Shown in pieces: positions 4,050 to 63,763 of a stretch of 64,000 nucleotides of DNA (the first letter of the stretch is position 1; each line of letters opens with the position of its first letter). Under the pieces are notes generated by a model. It was not told the DNA's origin. It saw only the letters and a list, made by a program, of their open reading frames with translations, and did not search any database. The position numbers and the translations under genes were made by a program. Origin of the DNA: Escherichia phage FEC14. The stretch lies in sequence record MG383452; one strand, written 5' to 3'.

Positions 4050-4600
4050 TAGAACTCCAGAGTCAGAGGGGTTTCGGCAGACTTGTCATAGTTCGCACCG
4101 CCAGCAGCACGTAGACGATTGCGATCGTTCTTGCGCTTGTGGGCCAGCATATAGGTTTCGGTGTCCAGATCCAAATAACCACAAGCCTTTGATAAAAACC
4201 GCACAAAACGGATAACATCTGGTTGAACCATAAATGACGTAAAACATTCTGTGACCGATTCCAGATTGGCCGATTTGTCTATCACTCGTCCGTCCTTGAA
4301 GAAAAGGTCAATCTGCATTTCAACTGGGAAAGCAGAACCAAATCCAGATAAAATGGAAGACAACATAAAATGTACCACGTCCACCAATTCGTAGACAGCT
4401 GCTTCTCGGTCATATTGTATCCCACCGCCATAGATTTTCCAGTCCTGGGTTGTTTCGTCAAGAAACTCTGCCCACTCACGATAGATGGAGTTCACCACCG
4501 CCACATGAGTCCAATGTTTACGCCACTCTTCCCCAAAATAGGCCACGTTGGTGGCCTTTTGAAGTTCGAGCAGACTTTTGATATGCTCTGCTGTGATCAT
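4049..4600 (-). CDS. putative MazG-like all-alpha NTP pyrophosphatase (T4 gp56 dCTPase/dUTPase-like)
   Basis: 183 aa; acidic helix pattern REWAEFLDE ... EAAVYELVDVVHF typical of MazG/HisE fold; context with dNMP kinase and hydroxymethylase. Confidence 0.4.
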   Translation of the reverse strand: MITAEHIKSLLELQKATNVAYFGEEWRKHWTHVAVVNSIYREWAEFLDETTQDWKIYGGGIQYDREAAVYELVDVVHFMLSSILSGFGSAFPVEMQIDLFFKDGRVIDKSANLESVTECFTSFMVQPDVIRFVRFLSKACGYLDLDTETYMLAHKRKNDRNRLRAAGGANYDKSAETPLTLEF

Positions 4601-28078: not shown

Positions 28079-28167
28079 GATTTGTTTCCTGTATTGTGAA
28101 CCATCTAGTATTTAGTGTTAATGGGTTCATGAGGTACTATATAGAATAATATAACTGGAGAAAGAAA

Positions 28168-28773
28168 ATGAAAACTTTTCAAGACTTTTTGACCGAAGCC
28201 GCGCCGCCGATGTCTGTTCATATCAAGGCAGACAAGATCGGCAAATCCACCGAAGACAATATCGGTACTTTCTTGCGAGTTAGTGTTAGTGGCGACAAAG
28301 CCACCTTTGAAACCCCTGATGGTCGTAAGATAATCCTGACGGGTGCCAGAGACATCATTTCCGCATCTGGTCTGAAAGATGGACAGTTTGCCAGTGCCCA
28401 GATGATTGACAAGGTTGATACTGACACCGCTGTCAAGTACAACAAATCAGGCAAATATATTGACTTGTTGGATGTCAAATCAGGTATGGGCAATTCCTTT
28501 ATCTCCATTGACGGCAACAAGCAATGGAAAGAAATGACTGAAGGTGGTTGGTATGCGTATAAAGGCGGTCGCCCCGGCTTGGCTCGTTATAAGATCGCCA
28601 TGGTTATGGGACCTCATGCGGGTATGCCATCTCCTGGGGAAGATATTGAATACGAGTTACCGAATGGCGGCAAAGAACGCGGAACCGTCATGAAACTGAA
28701 TGGTGCATCCAAGCTGATGGACGTCAAAAACGAAAAAGGTAAGAAAGTACAAGTCAGTATGTATGTGAAATAA
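28168..28773 (+). CDS. putative capsid internal protein with T4-type capsid-targeting sequence
   Basis: N-terminus MKTFQDFLTE-A closely matches T4 IP leader MKTYQEFIAE-A; own terminator. Confidence 0.45.
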   Translation: MKTFQDFLTEAAPPMSVHIKADKIGKSTEDNIGTFLRVSVSGDKATFETPDGRKIILTGARDIISASGLKDGQFASAQMIDKVDTDTAVKYNKSGKYIDLLDVKSGMGNSFISIDGNKQWKEMTEGGWYAYKGGRPGLARYKIAMVMGPHAGMPSPGEDIEYELPNGGKERGTVMKLNGASKLMDVKNEKGKKVQVSMYVK

Positions 28774-28775
28774 CA

Positions 28776-28802
28776 AAACCCCGCGAAAGCGGGGTTTCTT
28801 TT
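28776..28802. terminator. bidirectional rho-independent terminator
   Basis: CCCCGC-GAAA-GCGGGG hairpin followed by TTTCTTTT. Confidence 0.55.
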
Positions 28803-29040
28803 ATGGCTTGACCAGAGTCATCTTGACGGTTTCACCCGTGTCGGTGTCTGTCAGGGTCATGACGTCTTGTGCGTTCACAGACTTCACTTTCCCCTGCCGC
28901 TTGTCGCCGTTGCGGTTGTAGTAGTCGATCAGTTCGCCTTTGGTTGGGCGGCCAACATCGGTGATGTCATACTGACCGCGCTTCCCCAGCGCCCGATGGT
29001 CTGTTGCTTCCTTCAGCAGGAAGTCCTGGAACCCTTTCAT
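28801..29040 (-). CDS. small protein with capsid-targeting-like N-terminus (79 aa)
   Basis: MKGFQDFLLKE-A leader; GGGGGA RBS. Confidence 0.4.
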   Translation of the reverse strand: MKGFQDFLLKEATDHRALGKRGQYDITDVGRPTKGELIDYYNRNGDKRQGKVKSVNAQDVMTLTDTDTGETVKMTLVKP

Positions 29041-29048
29041 ACATCCCC

Positions 29049-29618
29049 CTAGACAGGCTTAACGCCGAGGAACTTGGCGATATCAGCAGCCAGGTTTTTA
29101 CCCTTGCTGATGTCCTGCTCTTTGCCGTTGCAGGTGACGATCACATATGGGTCGTCTTCGCCGCCGAAGTTCACGGTGATCGCCTTGCCGATGCCTGGGA
29201 TACCAGAGTATTCGAACTCAGTGCGACCACTTTTGCGGGACTTGCCAACACCCAGTGCTTTACCGATCATCTTGTCCATGTTCGCCAGTTCCTGAGCATA
29301 GGCTTCGGTCACCTGGCCTTTGTCAGCAGACTTGCCAAAGAAGAATTCGAAACCGTCATGGACAGCAACGACTTCCTGACCTTGGGAGATACCGTGAGTC
29401 TGGTCTGGGGTTAGTTTGACTTTTGCTGTGTTACCGTCAGTGAGTTCCAGGTTGTAGACATCCGCCTGATTGTCAGGGGTGATCTGGGTGATGACAGCTC
29501 CAGAGCACCACAATGTTCCATCAGCTTGGCTTTTGATGGATATACTCTTGCCCTGGATGCCAGCATGGGTCTGAGGCTGAGCGGCTTGTTCTTTGAAATA
29601 TTGAAGGAACGGTTTCAT
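29049..29618 (-). CDS. putative capsid internal protein (189 aa), late gene
   Basis: MKPFLQYFKE-Q leader; GAGGAG RBS; exact late promoter 24 nt upstream. Confidence 0.5.
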   Translation of the reverse strand: MKPFLQYFKEQAAQPQTHAGIQGKSISIKSQADGTLWCSGAVITQITPDNQADVYNLELTDGNTAKVKLTPDQTHGISQGQEVVAVHDGFEFFFGKSADKGQVTEAYAQELANMDKMIGKALGVGKSRKSGRTEFEYSGIPGIGKAITVNFGGEDDPYVIVTCNGKEQDISKGKNLAADIAKFLGVKPV

Positions 29619-29642
29619 CTTAATCTCCTCGGGGATTTCAGT

Positions 29643-29650
29643 TATTTATA
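29643..29650 (-). promoter_or_regulatory. T4-type late promoter TATAAATA (minus strand)
   Basis: plus-strand TATTTATA = minus TATAAATA, 24 nt upstream of ATG 29618. Confidence 0.5.
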
Positions 29651-29651
29651 A

Positions 29652-29665
29652 GCCCCCGAAGGGGC
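29652..29665 (-). terminator. stem-loop downstream of the 638-aa gene (possible terminator/RNA stability element)
   Basis: GCCCC-CGAA-GGGGC hairpin immediately after stop codon; weak T-run. Confidence 0.35.
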
Positions 29666-29674
29666 TTTCGATGA

Positions 29675-31591
29675 TCAGATCTTAATCTGCATATTGCCGC
29701 CCAGGGACTGCTCGTACTCGCTGTACGCGCTTTCCCCGTTGCTTGCAGCCCATTCGTCAGACTGCTGAGCGCGAGACAGAGTCATCAGGTTTGGTTCAGT
29801 CGGGTTGTATCCCTTGGACTTAGCATCCTGGTACAGAGTCTGCAGGTACTGGTTAGCGCGATCGATTTGAGCCTTGAACTCGCGATATGCACCTTCGGTT
29901 GTGTTACGACGGAAGGTGATATCCCAGTCCACGTTCAGAGTCTGACCATCACGGCTTGCATAGATCTGCCAATCCAGGTCGCGACCTTTTGGAGCGTTGT
30001 CGCGGATGGAGCCTGCATATGTTGCCAGGTCTACACCAGTCTTTTTAGCGGTCGCTAAAACCAAGGGTGCCAAGCGATCAATAGCGGTTTGCACTATTGC
30101 GGTCAGTTTGGACGGTTTGGTGATGTCGATGTCTCGGATGACGATAGGCTGGCCGATGGTCTTCCCATTCGGTCCATATTCGGTAATTGCTTTGACAGTC
30201 AGCACAATAGGATCACTTCCTTTGGTGATACCACGGTTGATCGTCGCTGTTACAGCCCCTTTCGCGCCAAAAGAGACACTACCGGAGGCCATCGTAGAAG
30301 AAGACACACCACGAAGTTCATTTACTTTGTAGAATGCGTTCACCAGAGCACGCCAGCGGTCTGTTGTGAGTTCGGCTGCCGTGGTTTGAGCAGGAGCCAC
30401 AGCCCCAACGCCAAATTCAACATAAGCCACAATCTTGCCACCCGACTTCAGTTCCCAACCCATACCCTGACGGTCAGAAGCCGCCATGAGTTTACGATCC
30501 ACTTCCCCACGACCAACATATTCTTTGTTGAATACGGTCACCTGAGCGATAGATTGGGAGCGGGCAATCTTCGCCATTGCGCCATCTTTGACCATGATGG
30601 CCAGATCATTGGAACTCAGAGTCACGTCGTTGGCACCGACTACCTTCACAACAGAACTGAAGATGCCGTTGGATTTCGCCATGACGGAAATGTTCCAGTC
30701 AGGGTTGGCATCACTGGTCGGGAAGTTAATTTCACGCCAGTCTTTGACGCGTTGGTTGAAATTATTGAGCAGATCCGAAGGAGGAACAGGAACACCAAAT
30801 TCACGACAAATATCTTCTACGGTCGGTTCTACCACCTGCTTTCTACCGTTCTGACCAACGAGGACATCGGCCTCACTCAGGCTTGGGGTAATGTCCAAGT
30901 CAAATGTGCCACGCTGATAATAGTTGATGCGAGGAGGCTGACCGATCTTACCACGCCATGACCAGGTTGCGGGATTGTTGGTAGTAGCGCCAACATTAGT
31001 GTCTTGAGTATCGTTCTGAACCGGAACGTCGCCGACCTTGTCTGGATCATCCCATGTGACACCTTTCATTTTCGGACCATCGAATACCTGAGCAGGATCC
31101 TTACCTTTACGCACAACCCATACGAATGCACGATCAGGGATAGGGGTATACGTCAGGTCCATGACATTGAGCTTCTGCTTCAGGCCGGACTGACGGATGA
31201 TCTTCGGCAGGAGGGTAACACCACGTTCCAATGCTTTCTTGGAGAAGTTAATTGCAAAGCCGTCAATGGTTTTCCCCAAAGGCGTCGCCATGAATTGCTT
31301 TGTTGCTTCGATCATGGATGCGATGACACGCATTGGGTTTTTGAAACGACCGATTGCGTCTGGATAGGTCGAACCACGTTTCTGGCCTATGAAGACCTGA
31401 CGAACGTTCTTGCCCAGCCCCTGCGGGGTATAAAATTGGATGCGGAATTCTTTTTCGTCTTCATCAACAAATGTGAAGAAAATGTCACCAGCGTTCTTCT
31501 TACCGAATGTCAATTCATACGGGGATGAGTTAAACGCTTCGTCTAATTGTTTAGACTCTTCAAGAAAGTTCAAGAAAGATGGGATGGCCAT
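29675..31591 (-). CDS. large protein (638 aa) with capsid-targeting-like N-terminus; candidate packaged/injected protein
   Basis: MAIPSFLNFLEE-S leader resembling L-x-E cleavage context; AGGAGA RBS. Confidence 0.5.
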   Translation of the reverse strand: MAIPSFLNFLEESKQLDEAFNSSPYELTFGKKNAGDIFFTFVDEDEKEFRIQFYTPQGLGKNVRQVFIGQKRGSTYPDAIGRFKNPMRVIASMIEATKQFMATPLGKTIDGFAINFSKKALERGVTLLPKIIRQSGLKQKLNVMDLTYTPIPDRAFVWVVRKGKDPAQVFDGPKMKGVTWDDPDKVGDVPVQNDTQDTNVGATTNNPATWSWRGKIGQPPRINYYQRGTFDLDITPSLSEADVLVGQNGRKQVVEPTVEDICREFGVPVPPSDLLNNFNQRVKDWREINFPTSDANPDWNISVMAKSNGIFSSVVKVVGANDVTLSSNDLAIMVKDGAMAKIARSQSIAQVTVFNKEYVGRGEVDRKLMAASDRQGMGWELKSGGKIVAYVEFGVGAVAPAQTTAAELTTDRWRALVNAFYKVNELRGVSSSTMASGSVSFGAKGAVTATINRGITKGSDPIVLTVKAITEYGPNGKTIGQPIVIRDIDITKPSKLTAIVQTAIDRLAPLVLATAKKTGVDLATYAGSIRDNAPKGRDLDWQIYASRDGQTLNVDWDITFRRNTTEGAYREFKAQIDRANQYLQTLYQDAKSKGYNPTEPNLMTLSRAQQSDEWAASNGESAYSEYEQSLGGNMQIKI

Positions 31592-31669
31592 TGTAATTCT
31601 CCTGATTATAAAATCGGTGCGGTTTCCCTTAATTAGCGAAAAGAAAGGGATGCTAACACCCCTTTATTC

Positions 31670-33686: not shown

Positions 33687-33996
33687 ATGTTTGTCTCAAA
33701 TATTCAGTAAAAGATTTACCCAACTTACGGAATAGTTTAATACGACCGATCACTTTGACATAAACATCTCCATGACATGGGCGCGGCTTACACCAGCATC
33801 CCAAGGTCTTTCCATCTAATTCAAGGAGTTCATCTTCGGTGATATCCCCTTCAATCAGGCGCACATACAAGTCGTCTTCAAACAACTCAATACAGTTTCC
33901 CCGCCCGTGGTCTTTGACCTCGAACGGGTTTCCCCATTTGCCAGGACGGCCAATGTAGACGTCGTGTGGTTCCTTCTTGAAGTGGACGACTTTCAT
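33667..33996 (-). CDS. conserved hypothetical protein (DUF4326-like pattern)
   Basis: 109 aa; HDVYIGRPGKWGNPF ... LGCWCKPRPCHGDV pattern. Confidence 0.4.
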   Translation of the reverse strand: MKVVHFKKEPHDVYIGRPGKWGNPFEVKDHGRGNCIELFEDDLYVRLIEGDITEDELLELDGKTLGCWCKPRPCHGDVYVKVIGRIKLFRKLGKSFTEYLRQTYVRRER

Positions 33997-34148
33997 ATGA
34001 TTGTATCAGCTAACCAGTATGCTGCCCAAACGCTTACACCACCGTACATAAAACCATAGATAATTTCTCCAGAGTTTATGTGGCGTAAACACATATTCAC
34101 AGAACAAATTGTGATTAAAATCAAAAATACCAAACAAATAGTAGCCAT
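33993..34148 (-). CDS. small hydrophobic protein (about 51 aa), translationally coupled
   Basis: unlisted ORF MATICLVFLILITICSV...; ATGA overlaps at both ends with flanking genes. Confidence 0.3.
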   Translation of the reverse strand: MATICLVFLILITICSVNMCLRHINSGEIIYGFMYGGVSVWAAYWLADTII

Positions 34149-43570: not shown

Positions 43571-43889
43571 GGGGTTCTCCCTGAGACAGTATGGTTTTCA
43601 TCTGTTCACGCGTGATAATTGTTTCAACAAGATTCTCGTCAATCATCATTTCGTTTAACAGTTCACAACCCAGCACGTGTGGTCGCGCCATATACGGCAT
43701 CGTGTTGAGTTTTTCTTCTATGTCAAGAACGCGCTTGACAGTCAGACCCATAGAAGAAAAGGGAACAGGATAAAAGAATGAAATGATCTGATTATCCATC
43801 CCGTTTGAAAATCTTACCAACAATACATCACACCATACGCCGGACATATTACACCTCCAGACGGTTACAATGAGAAAGCGCGTTATCAA
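43560..43889 (-). CDS. hypothetical protein (109 aa)
   Basis: ORF track. Confidence 0.4.
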   Translation of the reverse strand: MITRFLIVTVWRCNMSGVWCDVLLVRFSNGMDNQIISFFYPVPFSSMGLTVKRVLDIEEKLNTMPYMARPHVLGCELLNEMMIDENLVETIITREQMKTILSQGEPHVE

Positions 43890-44538
43890 TCTGTTCCCGA
43901 GACAGATATTCCAACGGGTTGCGAGAATACGCGTCTAACAGCAGCAGTTGGAGCACAGCGCGATTACGAGTTTCACTCTCCATCATGATACCGTTCATAT
44001 GTGGTGAACGGGCTGTCCATACAACATACTGACCTAAATCGTCGTTGGCAGTCAGGCTAATGCGAAACTGATTACACAATTTGTCGATTAACGCATAATC
44101 ATATGTGAACGTCCCTTCAGTTTTCCAGCTTGATTTCTTCACCTGAAGAGCTTCACCACGAGTTCTGAATTCTAACGTCACTCCATGAGTTTCATTGTCG
44201 AAATGAACAACTCTCTGAGTTTCATTTTTCAGAGTCCGGTTCATATTATGTACGAAGAAACGGGCGTCGATCTCCCTATTGCTCATGGAATTAAAATCGA
44301 TCGGCCAAAAACGAGCGCGCATAATCGCGCCTTCTGGCAATACAATTAGTCCATTTTCACGGGAGACATAGCAAAGACGTTTAACTGCAGGGTCAGGATG
44401 TTCCACACAATAAACGGAAATTCCAGTGGGAAGGATAGCGTGGGCGACAACACCAGATCTTTCAAAATATAAATTACCCTGGTCAGCCCCGATGATAATA
44501 CGGCTCTTGTTGTTCATAATACGGCTCTTGTTGTTCAT
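43849..44538 (-). CDS. hypothetical protein (229 aa) with duplicated start region
   Basis: ORF track; N-terminus MNNKSRI-MNNKSRI encoded by a perfect tandem 21-bp duplication. Confidence 0.45.
   Translation of the reverse strand: MNNKSRIMNNKSRIIIGADQGNLYFERSGVVAHAILPTGISVYCVEHPDPAVKRLCYVSRENGLIVLPEGAIMRARFWPIDFNSMSNREIDARFFVHNMNRTLKNETQRVVHFDNETHGVTLEFRTRGEALQVKKSSWKTEGTFTYDYALIDKLCNQFRISLTANDDLGQYVVWTARSPHMNGIMMESETRNRAVLQLLLLDAYSRNPLEYLSREQIDNALSHCNRLEV
44497..44538 (-). repeat. perfect tandem duplication, 21 bp x 2 (AATACGGCTCTTGTTGTTCAT), spanning a start codon
   Basis: seen directly at 44497-44517 and 44518-44538. Confidence 0.8.
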
Positions 44539-44595
44539 AATATAGATCTCTCAAATAAAAGGCGGTTTAATAATAACCGCCCTAATGTTATTGAA

Positions 44596-50857: not shown

Positions 50858-51020
50858 CGTTATTACCTTCTTTAGTGGTATGGACGGCTTCACCTTCCGG
50901 CTTCGCCAGCATGTGTTCTATGAATTCGCGATTAGTTTCAATCTGTTGGATTAAAACTTCGCTGGGTTTAAACTGTGAGTCAAGAGAGTCAACTCCTGAA
51001 CGCAAAAATGGTTTGGTCAT
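50850..51020 (-). CDS. small ORF (56 aa), translationally coupled
   Basis: unlisted frame MTKPFLRSGVDSLDSQFKPSEVLIQQ...; start 1 nt after upstream stop, stop overlaps VWA start (ATGA). Confidence 0.3.
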   Translation of the reverse strand: MTKPFLRSGVDSLDSQFKPSEVLIQQIETNREFIEHMLAKPEGEAVHTTKEGNNDD

Positions 51021-51021
51021 A

Positions 51022-51381
51022 TCAATTCCCTTTCACTTCCATGACACCAGAAATATTCTTCAGGGCTTCACGGACTTCCGACGCCTTATCTTTCTTTACA
51101 ATCACAACAATGAAAGAAAAGTTCTTTTTCTTACGCCAATTCTTGAAATGAGTGACCAACTGGATATCTTTCTCTTCAGCACCACTTTCTCCAGCTACAG
51201 GGATATAAACTGTGCCTGACTCAATTACGACATCAGCATCGTCTGGAATATTTTCATCGAGTTCTTCACGGTATTCTCCATTAACTTTGACGCAATGATC
51301 ATCGTGCCAAGCACCCTTTTCCCAATATTCGTCATCGTTATAGTAGGCGTTGAATTCAACACCTTTCATTTTTACGGACAT
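51022..51381 (-). CDS. hypothetical protein (119 aa)
   Basis: ORF track. Confidence 0.45.
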   Translation of the reverse strand: MSVKMKGVEFNAYYNDDEYWEKGAWHDDHCVKVNGEYREELDENIPDDADVVIESGTVYIPVAGESGAEEKDIQLVTHFKNWRKKKNFSFIVVIVKKDKASEVREALKNISGVMEVKGN

Positions 51382-51481
51382 GATTTCCTCGCTTTACAAT
51401 TGGACCATTATACCTTGGCTTGTTAATTGAAACGCCCAGCAATTTGCCGGACGTTATTGATTTTGAAAGACTTTTGAAGAA

Positions 51482-55320: not shown

Positions 55321-55433
55321 GGTATAGTCTTCCTGTTTCAGTTCAAAGTGAGCGCCCTTATCGGGGCGCGTCGTTAAAGTGAGGTCAATATATACGTTGA
55401 AAAAGTTATTGAAGAACGAAGTAACGCGATTCT

Positions 55434-56690
55434 TTATTCAGGTTTCTTCAAACGATCTAATAAATTGACCGATCCGCGATTGAGGACAATTTCATCGCAT
55501 CGATTTTTGTATCTCCCGCCTCCATCATAACCGACCTTGCCGCGTGGCTTTTCCCCTCTCTCGATAGCCTCAACACAGCGGGTGTACTTGCTCAATTCAC
55601 AGAACATGTTCTCCAGCTGCATGACGTTCATGCACTGATCTTCCGGCGCTTCGGCTGACCAGAACTGCTCTTGGACATAACCATACTGAGCAAACAATTG
55701 ATACTGATGATCACGAACCCAGAATATGCATTCTTCATGAGTCATGCCGTCCTTATCCAGGAACATCAGGTCAATACCCGCACGGCAACCTGGACCAGCA
55801 ATAGTGAAATGATTCTCACTGAATGGATATTCATCGATGTATGTAAAATCAACCCAAATCTGGTATGCCAAGAATGGTCCAAGCCCCTCAATGTCGTCAT
55901 ACATCGCCTGGTAAACAGAGTCGGGACGGCTAAATTCCCTGAGGCGATCAAAGTAATGAGGGTGTTTGTTGACGAATGCCTTCAAAGAGCGAATGACTCG
56001 CATCGGCATGTATGGTTCCCAGCCTTCTATTTTGTATTCACCAGGATTATCTTCGGCCAGCTTCTTGGCAACCTTGTAATCCATTTCATCTATAACACCA
56101 CCCACCCGATGGACTTTTACCTTCATGCCGCCAAAGCGTTGCTCCTTATGGTTGACAACCAGTTCAGGGAAAGCTAGGCATTGTTTCAGACCGCCTGTAT
56201 TAAACGCATTGGTGAAAACTTTGCCACCTTTAGATTCGAATTCCTGAAGAACATCTCGACACCATTCAAGATTTATGTTTCCGAATTCTTCGATCGTCCA
56301 TGGACCACCCAAAGCCTGTATAGGTTCCCACATGTTGTACATGCGGAACAATACACAGTTAAACATTTTGTCAGATAGCGTGAGATCCTGATCGAGGATG
56401 ATATTATTGATCAAATTTCGAGACTGCCTATCGTGCTCTCTCCGGACGTTACAGAACTTGACCTGCCGTAGTATGGGATTATCCGTCCAAGGAGCAGGAA
56501 GACGCTGGACGTCCTTTCTCACGTGGATCTTATAACGCTCGCTCATCCATTCGTATGCGAGTTGTTTATGGAATGGGCTTAACATGGGATGTGCAGATTT
56601 AATTTTAACTTCCCGAACACCGCAATAAGGAATGTCACACGGTTTATCTTTCATGGTATCCTCTCTAGAATACAAAAAAACAGAGGCCAT
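55434..56690 (-). CDS. hypothetical protein (406-418 aa); candidate DNA-modification enzyme by context
   Basis: ORF track; alternative ATG at 56654 with GAGG RBS; first ATG sits in terminator loop. Confidence 0.5.
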   Translation of the reverse strand: MASVFLYSREDTMKDKPCDIPYCGVREVKIKSAHPMLSPFHKQLAYEWMSERYKIHVRKDVQRLPAPWTDNPILRQVKFCNVRREHDRQSRNLINNIILDQDLTLSDKMFNCVLFRMYNMWEPIQALGGPWTIEEFGNINLEWCRDVLQEFESKGGKVFTNAFNTGGLKQCLAFPELVVNHKEQRFGGMKVKVHRVGGVIDEMDYKVAKKLAEDNPGEYKIEGWEPYMPMRVIRSLKAFVNKHPHYFDRLREFSRPDSVYQAMYDDIEGLGPFLAYQIWVDFTYIDEYPFSENHFTIAGPGCRAGIDLMFLDKDGMTHEECIFWVRDHQYQLFAQYGYVQEQFWSAEAPEDQCMNVMQLENMFCELSKYTRCVEAIERGEKPRGKVGYDGGGRYKNRCDEIVLNRGSVNLLDRLKKPE

Positions 56691-63709: not shown

Positions 63710-63731
63710 GATTTATTCCCTGCTGTTTCAA

Positions 63732-63761
63732 CTCTCTGTATTATAACTCTCTGTATTATAA
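63732..63761 (-). repeat. perfect tandem repeat 15 bp x 2 (minus strand TATAATACAGAGAGT), each unit carrying TATAAT
   Basis: plus-strand ACTCTCTGTATTATA at 63732-63746 and 63747-63761, between two minus-strand genes. Confidence 0.7.
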
Positions 63762-63763
63762 CT

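Follow-up and report, generated by a model that had tools for sequence, protein, structure and literature searches.

A perfect 21-bp tandem duplication of the start codon and first codons of the CBA120 orf130 homologue in Escherichia phage FEC14, a probable recent slippage mutation

Streisinger-type slipped-strand mispairing between short direct repeats was classically mapped in rII mutants of phage T4. At simple-sequence contingency loci, changes in repeat number underlie phase variation, and some phage genes have dual-start motifs, an example being the lambda S105/S107 holin-antiholin. The tandem duplication in Escherichia phage FEC14 described here can be set beside each of these. As in Streisinger-type duplications, the copies are perfect and head-to-tail, the ancestral unit is bounded by the hexamer TATTAT and relatives carry a single copy. 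What it shares with contingency loci is a repeat-mediated, apparently slippage-driven change in length near the start of a gene, and with lambda S a pair of in-frame start codons separated by a few codons in the same region, with products that could differ only N-terminally.

The DNA analysed was a 64-kb stretch of FEC14 (hereafter the window), which belongs to a Kuttervirus genome (Ackermannviridae, CBA120/Vi1-like). Over 24 kb, its nearest relatives are KE28, pSC20, PhaxI and CBA120, which are approximately 97% identical to it. Read on the plus strand, positions 44497-44517 and 44518-44538 of the window are both AATACGGCTCTTGTTGTTCAT, head-to-tail and without a mismatch. Tandem Repeats Finder reported 44495-44542 as a repeat with a period of 21, 2.3 copies and 100% matches. 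In a lag-21 scan, 27 consecutive positions from 44495 matched the base 21 nt further on (s[i] = s[i+21]), and no other run in the window is as long when all lags of 6 to 60 are considered, the next longest being 19 and 12. The 21-nt repeat is far beyond chance. A first-pass annotation of the window had reported a perfect 21-bp tandem duplication of a start codon and the first seven codons, and the sequence, Tandem Repeats Finder and the lag scan all confirm it. The features of the locus are as follows.

43849-44538, minus strand: gene with the duplication, 229 aa, homologue of CBA120 orf130 (from the ORF list, the phrog_5426 match and the CBA120 alignment)
44495-44542, minus strand: full periodic tract, 48 nt, made up of 2 x 21 nt plus 6 nt
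44518-44538, minus strand: upstream (5') copy, ATGAACAACAAGAGCCGTATT, which contains ATG1 (44538-44536), encodes MNNKSRI and keeps the native 5' leader
44497-44517, minus strand: downstream copy, which contains ATG2 (44517-44515)
44537-44542, 44516-44521 and 44495-44500, minus strand: TATTAT hexamers (microhomology), of which the single-copy ancestor has two, 21 nt apart
44548-44552, minus strand: weak Shine-Dalgarno-like GAGAG, native, 9 nt upstream of ATG1, anti-SD duplex -2.9 kcal/mol
44525-44529, minus strand: weak Shine-Dalgarno-like AAGAG in copy 1, 7 nt upstream of ATG2, anti-SD duplex -2.1 kcal/mol
44559-44583, minus strand: terminator-like hairpin found by a consensus scan, between the orf131 and orf130 homologues and approximately 20 nt upstream of ATG1

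On the coding strand, the periodic tract reads TATTATGAACAACAAGAGCCG, then TATTATGAACAACAAGAGCCG again and then TATTAT. The repeat thus runs 6 nt past the two copies, and these six nucleotides are the informative microhomology. The translation of the minus-strand ORF (43849-44538) starts MNNKSRIMNNKSRIIIGADQG, with ATG1 and ATG2 in the same frame. The same sequence had been said to precede both start codons, which is true of the adjacent 4 nt (TATT) and of nothing further upstream. ATG1 is preceded by the native leader, ending ...GAGAGATCTA, and ATG2 by the coding sequence of copy 1, ending ...AAGAGCCG.

When an 852-bp segment around the gene was used as a query, 164 phage records were returned, almost all of them Salmonella or Escherichia Kutterviruses. 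The same query had no megablast match in PLSDB, and a plasmid origin was rejected. The CBA120 counterpart, orf130 (AEM91838.1), encodes 222 aa and is annotated as a 'conserved hypothetical phage protein'. Residues 8-227 of the 229-aa FEC14 protein match positions 1-224 of the 225 positions in the phrog_5426 profile (function unknown; E = 6.3e-121), and this full-length match places the gene in the phrog_5426 / CBA120 orf130 family at the level of sequence. The profile therefore starts at residue 8, the second Met, and the Met encoded by ATG2 is, in the alignments, the counterpart of Met1 in the 222-aa Kuttervirus homologues and of position 1 in the profile. From Met8 onward the protein is 100% identical to Kuttervirus homologues. 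A Pfam search with the orf130 homologue gave only sub-threshold noise (Pallilysin, E = 0.048), PADLOC gave nothing and no defence or anti-defence signal was found for the gene. A literature search found nothing on CBA120 orf130, the only match being ORF130 of an unrelated phage. In a protein search with 43849-44517, the gene occurred in two very divergent forms, with 126 records at 80% protein identity or above, 106 below 60% and none between. Examples of the divergent form are Vi01 'impD', phage 38 and S115 at approximately 36%, and Klebsiella phages at approximately 34-35%.

The orf130 homologue sits in a long run of minus-strand genes. The orf131 homologue is upstream, and downstream are a DUF7425 gene, a gp17-like superinfection-exclusion gene, an HU-like DNA-binding gene and a helicase gene. 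The hairpin between the orf131 and orf130 homologues consists of AGGGCGGTT-ATTATTA-AACCGCCTT followed by TTATTT. It was predicted in every fold, is unaltered by the duplication and is conserved in CBA120 and Salmonella phage Se_EM4. A sigma-70-like match, TTGAAC-16 nt-TAAAAT (44625-44598, minus strand; a consensus match only), lies within the end of the orf131 homologue. As this match is just upstream of the hairpin, the hairpin could be more than a terminator and form part of the orf130 homologue's 5' leader.

The comparison with closely related genomes that the first-pass annotation had suggested was made, and it showed that CBA120 has the 21-nt unit only once. In a direct alignment, a clean 21-bp gap was the only difference from CBA120, both across the entire gene and in the 200 bp surrounding its start. 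The top matches to the 852-bp query span 831 record bases, and 831/852 accounts for the reported 97.5% identity. With a 111-bp query centred on the repeat, the second copy was found in 0 of the 164 records matched, and the best places in them covered only 90 of the 111 bases, equivalent to a 21-bp gap. A 25-mer specific to the duplication junction occurs once in the window and was absent from IMG/VR, JGI metagenome contigs and GTDB genome contigs. At the protein level, the exact 229-aa sequence had no entry among 153 billion gene positions, all of the members listed of the two close 90% clusters (19/19) were 222 aa long, and the repeated start was absent from the distant homologues aligned. 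As judged from these sequence collections, the duplication is private to one phage isolate. The allele itself is undescribed, and it belongs to a thoroughly known kind of mutation.

The single-copy sequence, as seen in the CBA120 alignment, is ...TCTA TATTAT GAACAACAAGAGCCG TATTAT CATC..., in which 6-nt direct repeats are separated by 15 nt and spaced 21 nt apart, a textbook arrangement for slipped-strand mispairing. In a simulation, a 21-bp tandem duplication was placed at every position of the de-duplicated window and the flanking homology counted. Only 0.29% of positions gave 6 nt or more, making the observed breakpoints approximately 300-fold likelier under a homology-guided process than under one with arbitrary breakpoints, such as an untrimmed contig overlap. 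Thus, perfect head-to-tail copies, relatives that are single-copy and otherwise identical, and a flanking direct repeat are all present. Mechanistically, nothing distinguishes this case from a Streisinger-type duplication; here, the unit includes a start codon, and the outcome is a second in-frame ATG rather than an internal repeat. The earlier suggestion of a very recent slipped-strand duplication is supported by the private allele, the match to CBA120 outside the 21-bp insertion and the 6-nt direct repeats 21 nt apart. We consider it likely that the duplication is a recent, private slippage mutation that is probably neutral or nearly so, and that no evolved dual-start device is involved.

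Such a mutation would have arisen during replication, when the nascent strand slipped between the TATTAT hexamers that lie on either side of the initial codons, start codon included, of the orf130 homologue. The nascent 3' end, with the second TATTAT already copied, would re-pair with the first TATTAT, and the intervening 21 nt would be copied again to leave two head-to-tail units. Since 21 is divisible by three and neither the native leader nor the native start is lost, the gene stays intact. Initiation at ATG1 would then yield the normal protein with seven additional N-terminal residues (MNNKSRI), and initiation at ATG2 the normal 222-aa protein. A reciprocal deletion, with the hexamers as its endpoints, would cost the gene its start codon, which may be the reason that only the duplication is seen. 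The window encodes a T4-like replication and recombination set (gp41, a gp43-type polymerase region and homologues of UvsX, UvsY and UvsW, according to the CBA120 annotation). A search of the literature on the mechanism found nothing phage-specific. A phase-variable contingency repeat was rejected: the 21-nt unit never switches frame, there are only two copies, and all other isolates have one copy and form no copy-number series.

The duplication placed the weak Shine-Dalgarno-like AAGAG before ATG2. Of six neighbouring ORF starts, five have anti-SD duplexes of -4.3 to -8.8 kcal/mol, stronger than those of ATG1 and ATG2. In folds with matched ends, the predicted accessibility was 0.47-0.51 for ATG2 and 0.32-0.35 for ATG1, and the duplication had no effect on the predicted accessibility of ATG1 in the two contexts examined with matched ends (0.35 versus 0.37 and 0.32 versus 0.31). 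Both duplexes are weak, and the folding predictions do not discriminate between the two starts. On these predictions either start could be used, the products differing only by MNNKSRI, and the duplication may have created two usable starts as a by-product.

An AlphaFold2 model of the protein, built from a 12-sequence alignment (pLDDT 81, pTM 0.80), is that of a soluble alpha/beta protein in which pLDDT stays below 50 for residues 1-10 and residues 13-17 form the first beta-strand. The seven extra residues are thus disordered in the model. Across the family, the leader that precedes the conserved IIIGADxG is variable in sequence and 6-17 residues long, and in FEC14 it is 14. As the added residues are predicted to be disordered and a 14-residue leader lies within the natural range, the change is probably tolerated. 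No transmembrane or hydrophobic segment was found in the 229-aa protein (KD19 maximum 1.21). The first-pass annotation had also proposed a device providing two initiation sites. As an evolved arrangement this found no support, as the second copy is present in 0 of 164 relatives, the close homologues listed are 222 aa and the profile starts at the second Met. An evolved dual-start gene of the lambda S type was rejected. Unlike in lambda S, the second start in FEC14 is not conserved and the product, a soluble alpha/beta protein in the model, lacks a transmembrane segment; and the two starts, 7 codons apart, are exact copies, the mark of a duplication that is fresh rather than of an evolved motif.

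A second private perfect tandem duplication was found at 63730-63763 of the window, with a 15-nt unit, AACTCTCTGTATTAT, present in 2.27 copies. It has 4 nt of microhomology (P = 2.5% by chance) and sits in the short spacer between the stop codon of gp3 (tail completion) and the start of uvsY. On the coding strand it duplicates GTTATAATACAGAGA, within which a TATAAT-like element lies approximately 25 nt upstream of the uvsY ATG. The duplication was present in 0 of 223 matching phage records, whose best places span 106 of the 121 bases of the query. The 7-mer ATAATAC is common to both duplicated units (44497-44517 and 63730-63744) on opposite strands. It was rejected as a signal, since the chance of such sharing is approximately 4% (an estimate from 630 position pairs x 4^-7) and its position relative to the breakpoints differs.

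Comparison of the window with CBA120 gave 59,813 aligned columns with 1,055 mismatches and seven indels, namely those of 13, 21 and 15 bp, an in-frame AAA, a 2-bp and a 1-bp indel three bases apart, and AA in an A-run. None of the seven resembles frameshift noise. The 13-bp indel is an insertion of TAACACCCCTTTA at 31654-31666 relative to CBA120, which involves no tandem duplication and lies in a less conserved block (96.4% identity). A perfect repeat of two 10-nt units, TTCAAGAAAG, at 31559-31578 is common to CBA120 and Se_EM4, and is thus conserved or old rather than a private event. Collinearity with CBA120 is broken at 28081-31023, 4186-4454, 33798-34145, 51016-51387 and 55392-55567, where segments have been replaced or have diverged too far to align under the blastn settings applied. 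The largest of these breaks is near CBA120 orf108-orf111, and orf111 is annotated as a 'possible fusion protein'.

A different expansion of the same gene was found in Salmonella phage Se_EM4 (LR811968.1, 124500-125228; CAB5508953.1). The Se_EM4 protein is a 242-aa version that has NETQRVVHFD in triplicate rather than as a single copy, and in the DNA this corresponds to a 60-bp in-frame insertion of two extra copies of a 30-nt unit, for 3.37 copies altogether. The 21-nt unit is present in Se_EM4 in a single copy. The corresponding site in FEC14 has one copy of the 30-nt unit.

44186-44226, minus strand: second slippage-prone site, single-copy in the FEC14 window, 30-nt unit AATGAAACTCAGAGAGTTGTTCATTTCGAC, with a lag-30 run of 11 at 44186

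This unit is bounded by an 11-nt direct repeat, AATGAAACTCA, at 44226-44216 and 44196-44186 of the window. Apart from this 30-bp expansion, the 157.8-kb Se_EM4 genome has no perfect tandem repeat whose period exceeds 16. The expansion is like the FEC14 allele in being an in-frame, perfect tandem expansion of the same gene, bounded by microhomology (here 11 nt) and found in one isolate. It differs in affecting codons 99-108 of the 222-aa form, in its 30-bp unit and 3.37 copies, and in leaving initiation untouched.

Two other explanations of the FEC14 duplication have to be weighed against a recent slippage mutation. The extra copy may have been introduced during library preparation (by in-vitro polymerase slippage), assembly or consensus polishing and be absent from the phage DNA, a possibility that we regard as unlikely. 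In the assembly variant, which the first-pass annotation had offered as an alternative, it could be, for example, an untrimmed k-mer overlap from a circularising contig that was later rotated. A technical origin would suit an allele that is unique to one sequence across every collection searched. Small k-mers of 21 are in common use, 21 bp is therefore a plausible assembly k, and phages of this type assemble as circular or permuted molecules, with Se_EM4 deposited as circular. Two private perfect duplications in one window could also share one technical cause. The 64-kb window has two, as against none in the homologous 68 kb of CBA120 and one in the whole 157.8 kb of Se_EM4, which could hint at a genome-specific cause, whether biological or technical. 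However, the junction of a k-mer overlap falls arbitrarily, and few positions offer the 6 nt of flanking homology seen here (0.29%). The second duplication has its own microhomology (P = 2.5%) and, as its period is 15 and not 21, a single fixed-k overlap cannot explain both. A fixed-k assembly overlap as the sole explanation was dropped as a leading candidate on these two grounds, the microhomology and the differing period. The rest of the assembly is also without indel noise. In-vitro polymerase slippage would likewise use microhomology and is not touched by the argument from breakpoints. Indirectly, the evidence favours a real event, or at least polymerase slippage.

The other explanation is that the duplication was selected, being favoured because it alters output (two starts in tandem, or an A-rich, unstructured 5' coding region of greater length, would raise or tune translation) or the N-terminus, for instance to escape recognition by a host factor. 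A broader form would make the orf130-family gene a recurrent target of advantageous in-frame expansions in Kutterviruses, for instance for evasion of a host factor or defence or for the tuning of dose. We consider selection of the FEC14 duplication very unlikely, and the broader form equally so. Points in favour of selection are the independent tandem expansion, also in frame, that Se_EM4 carries in this 669-bp gene, the weak SD-like AAGAG that ATG2 gains at a spacing of 7 nt and in a predicted accessible position, and the occurrence of the gene in two very divergent forms (at least 80% or below 60% identity), as is often the case for host-interaction genes. Against it, each expansion allele is found in one isolate only, the duplication does not alter the predicted accessibility of ATG1, the added residues are disordered and fall in a naturally variable leader, and no defence or anti-defence signal was found for this gene of unknown function. 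As to the coincidence with Se_EM4, a rough estimate that assumes approximately 0.5-1 private long tandem duplication per genome, approximately 100 non-redundant genomes and a gene making up 0.42% of the genome gives 0.2-0.4 events expected in the orf130 gene by chance. One further event is therefore unremarkable, and we do not claim a hot spot.

For annotation, ATG1 should be taken as the start of the orf130 homologue of FEC14, and Met8 noted as the equivalent of the family start. The sites at 44.5 kb and 63.7 kb are a useful flag for genome curators. The duplication is a tidy natural case of what is probably microhomology-mediated slippage that copied a start codon, and as such it matters little. 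For the Kutterviruses, the coincidence with Se_EM4 is the only wider angle, and it would matter only if the gene were enriched for such events genome-wide.
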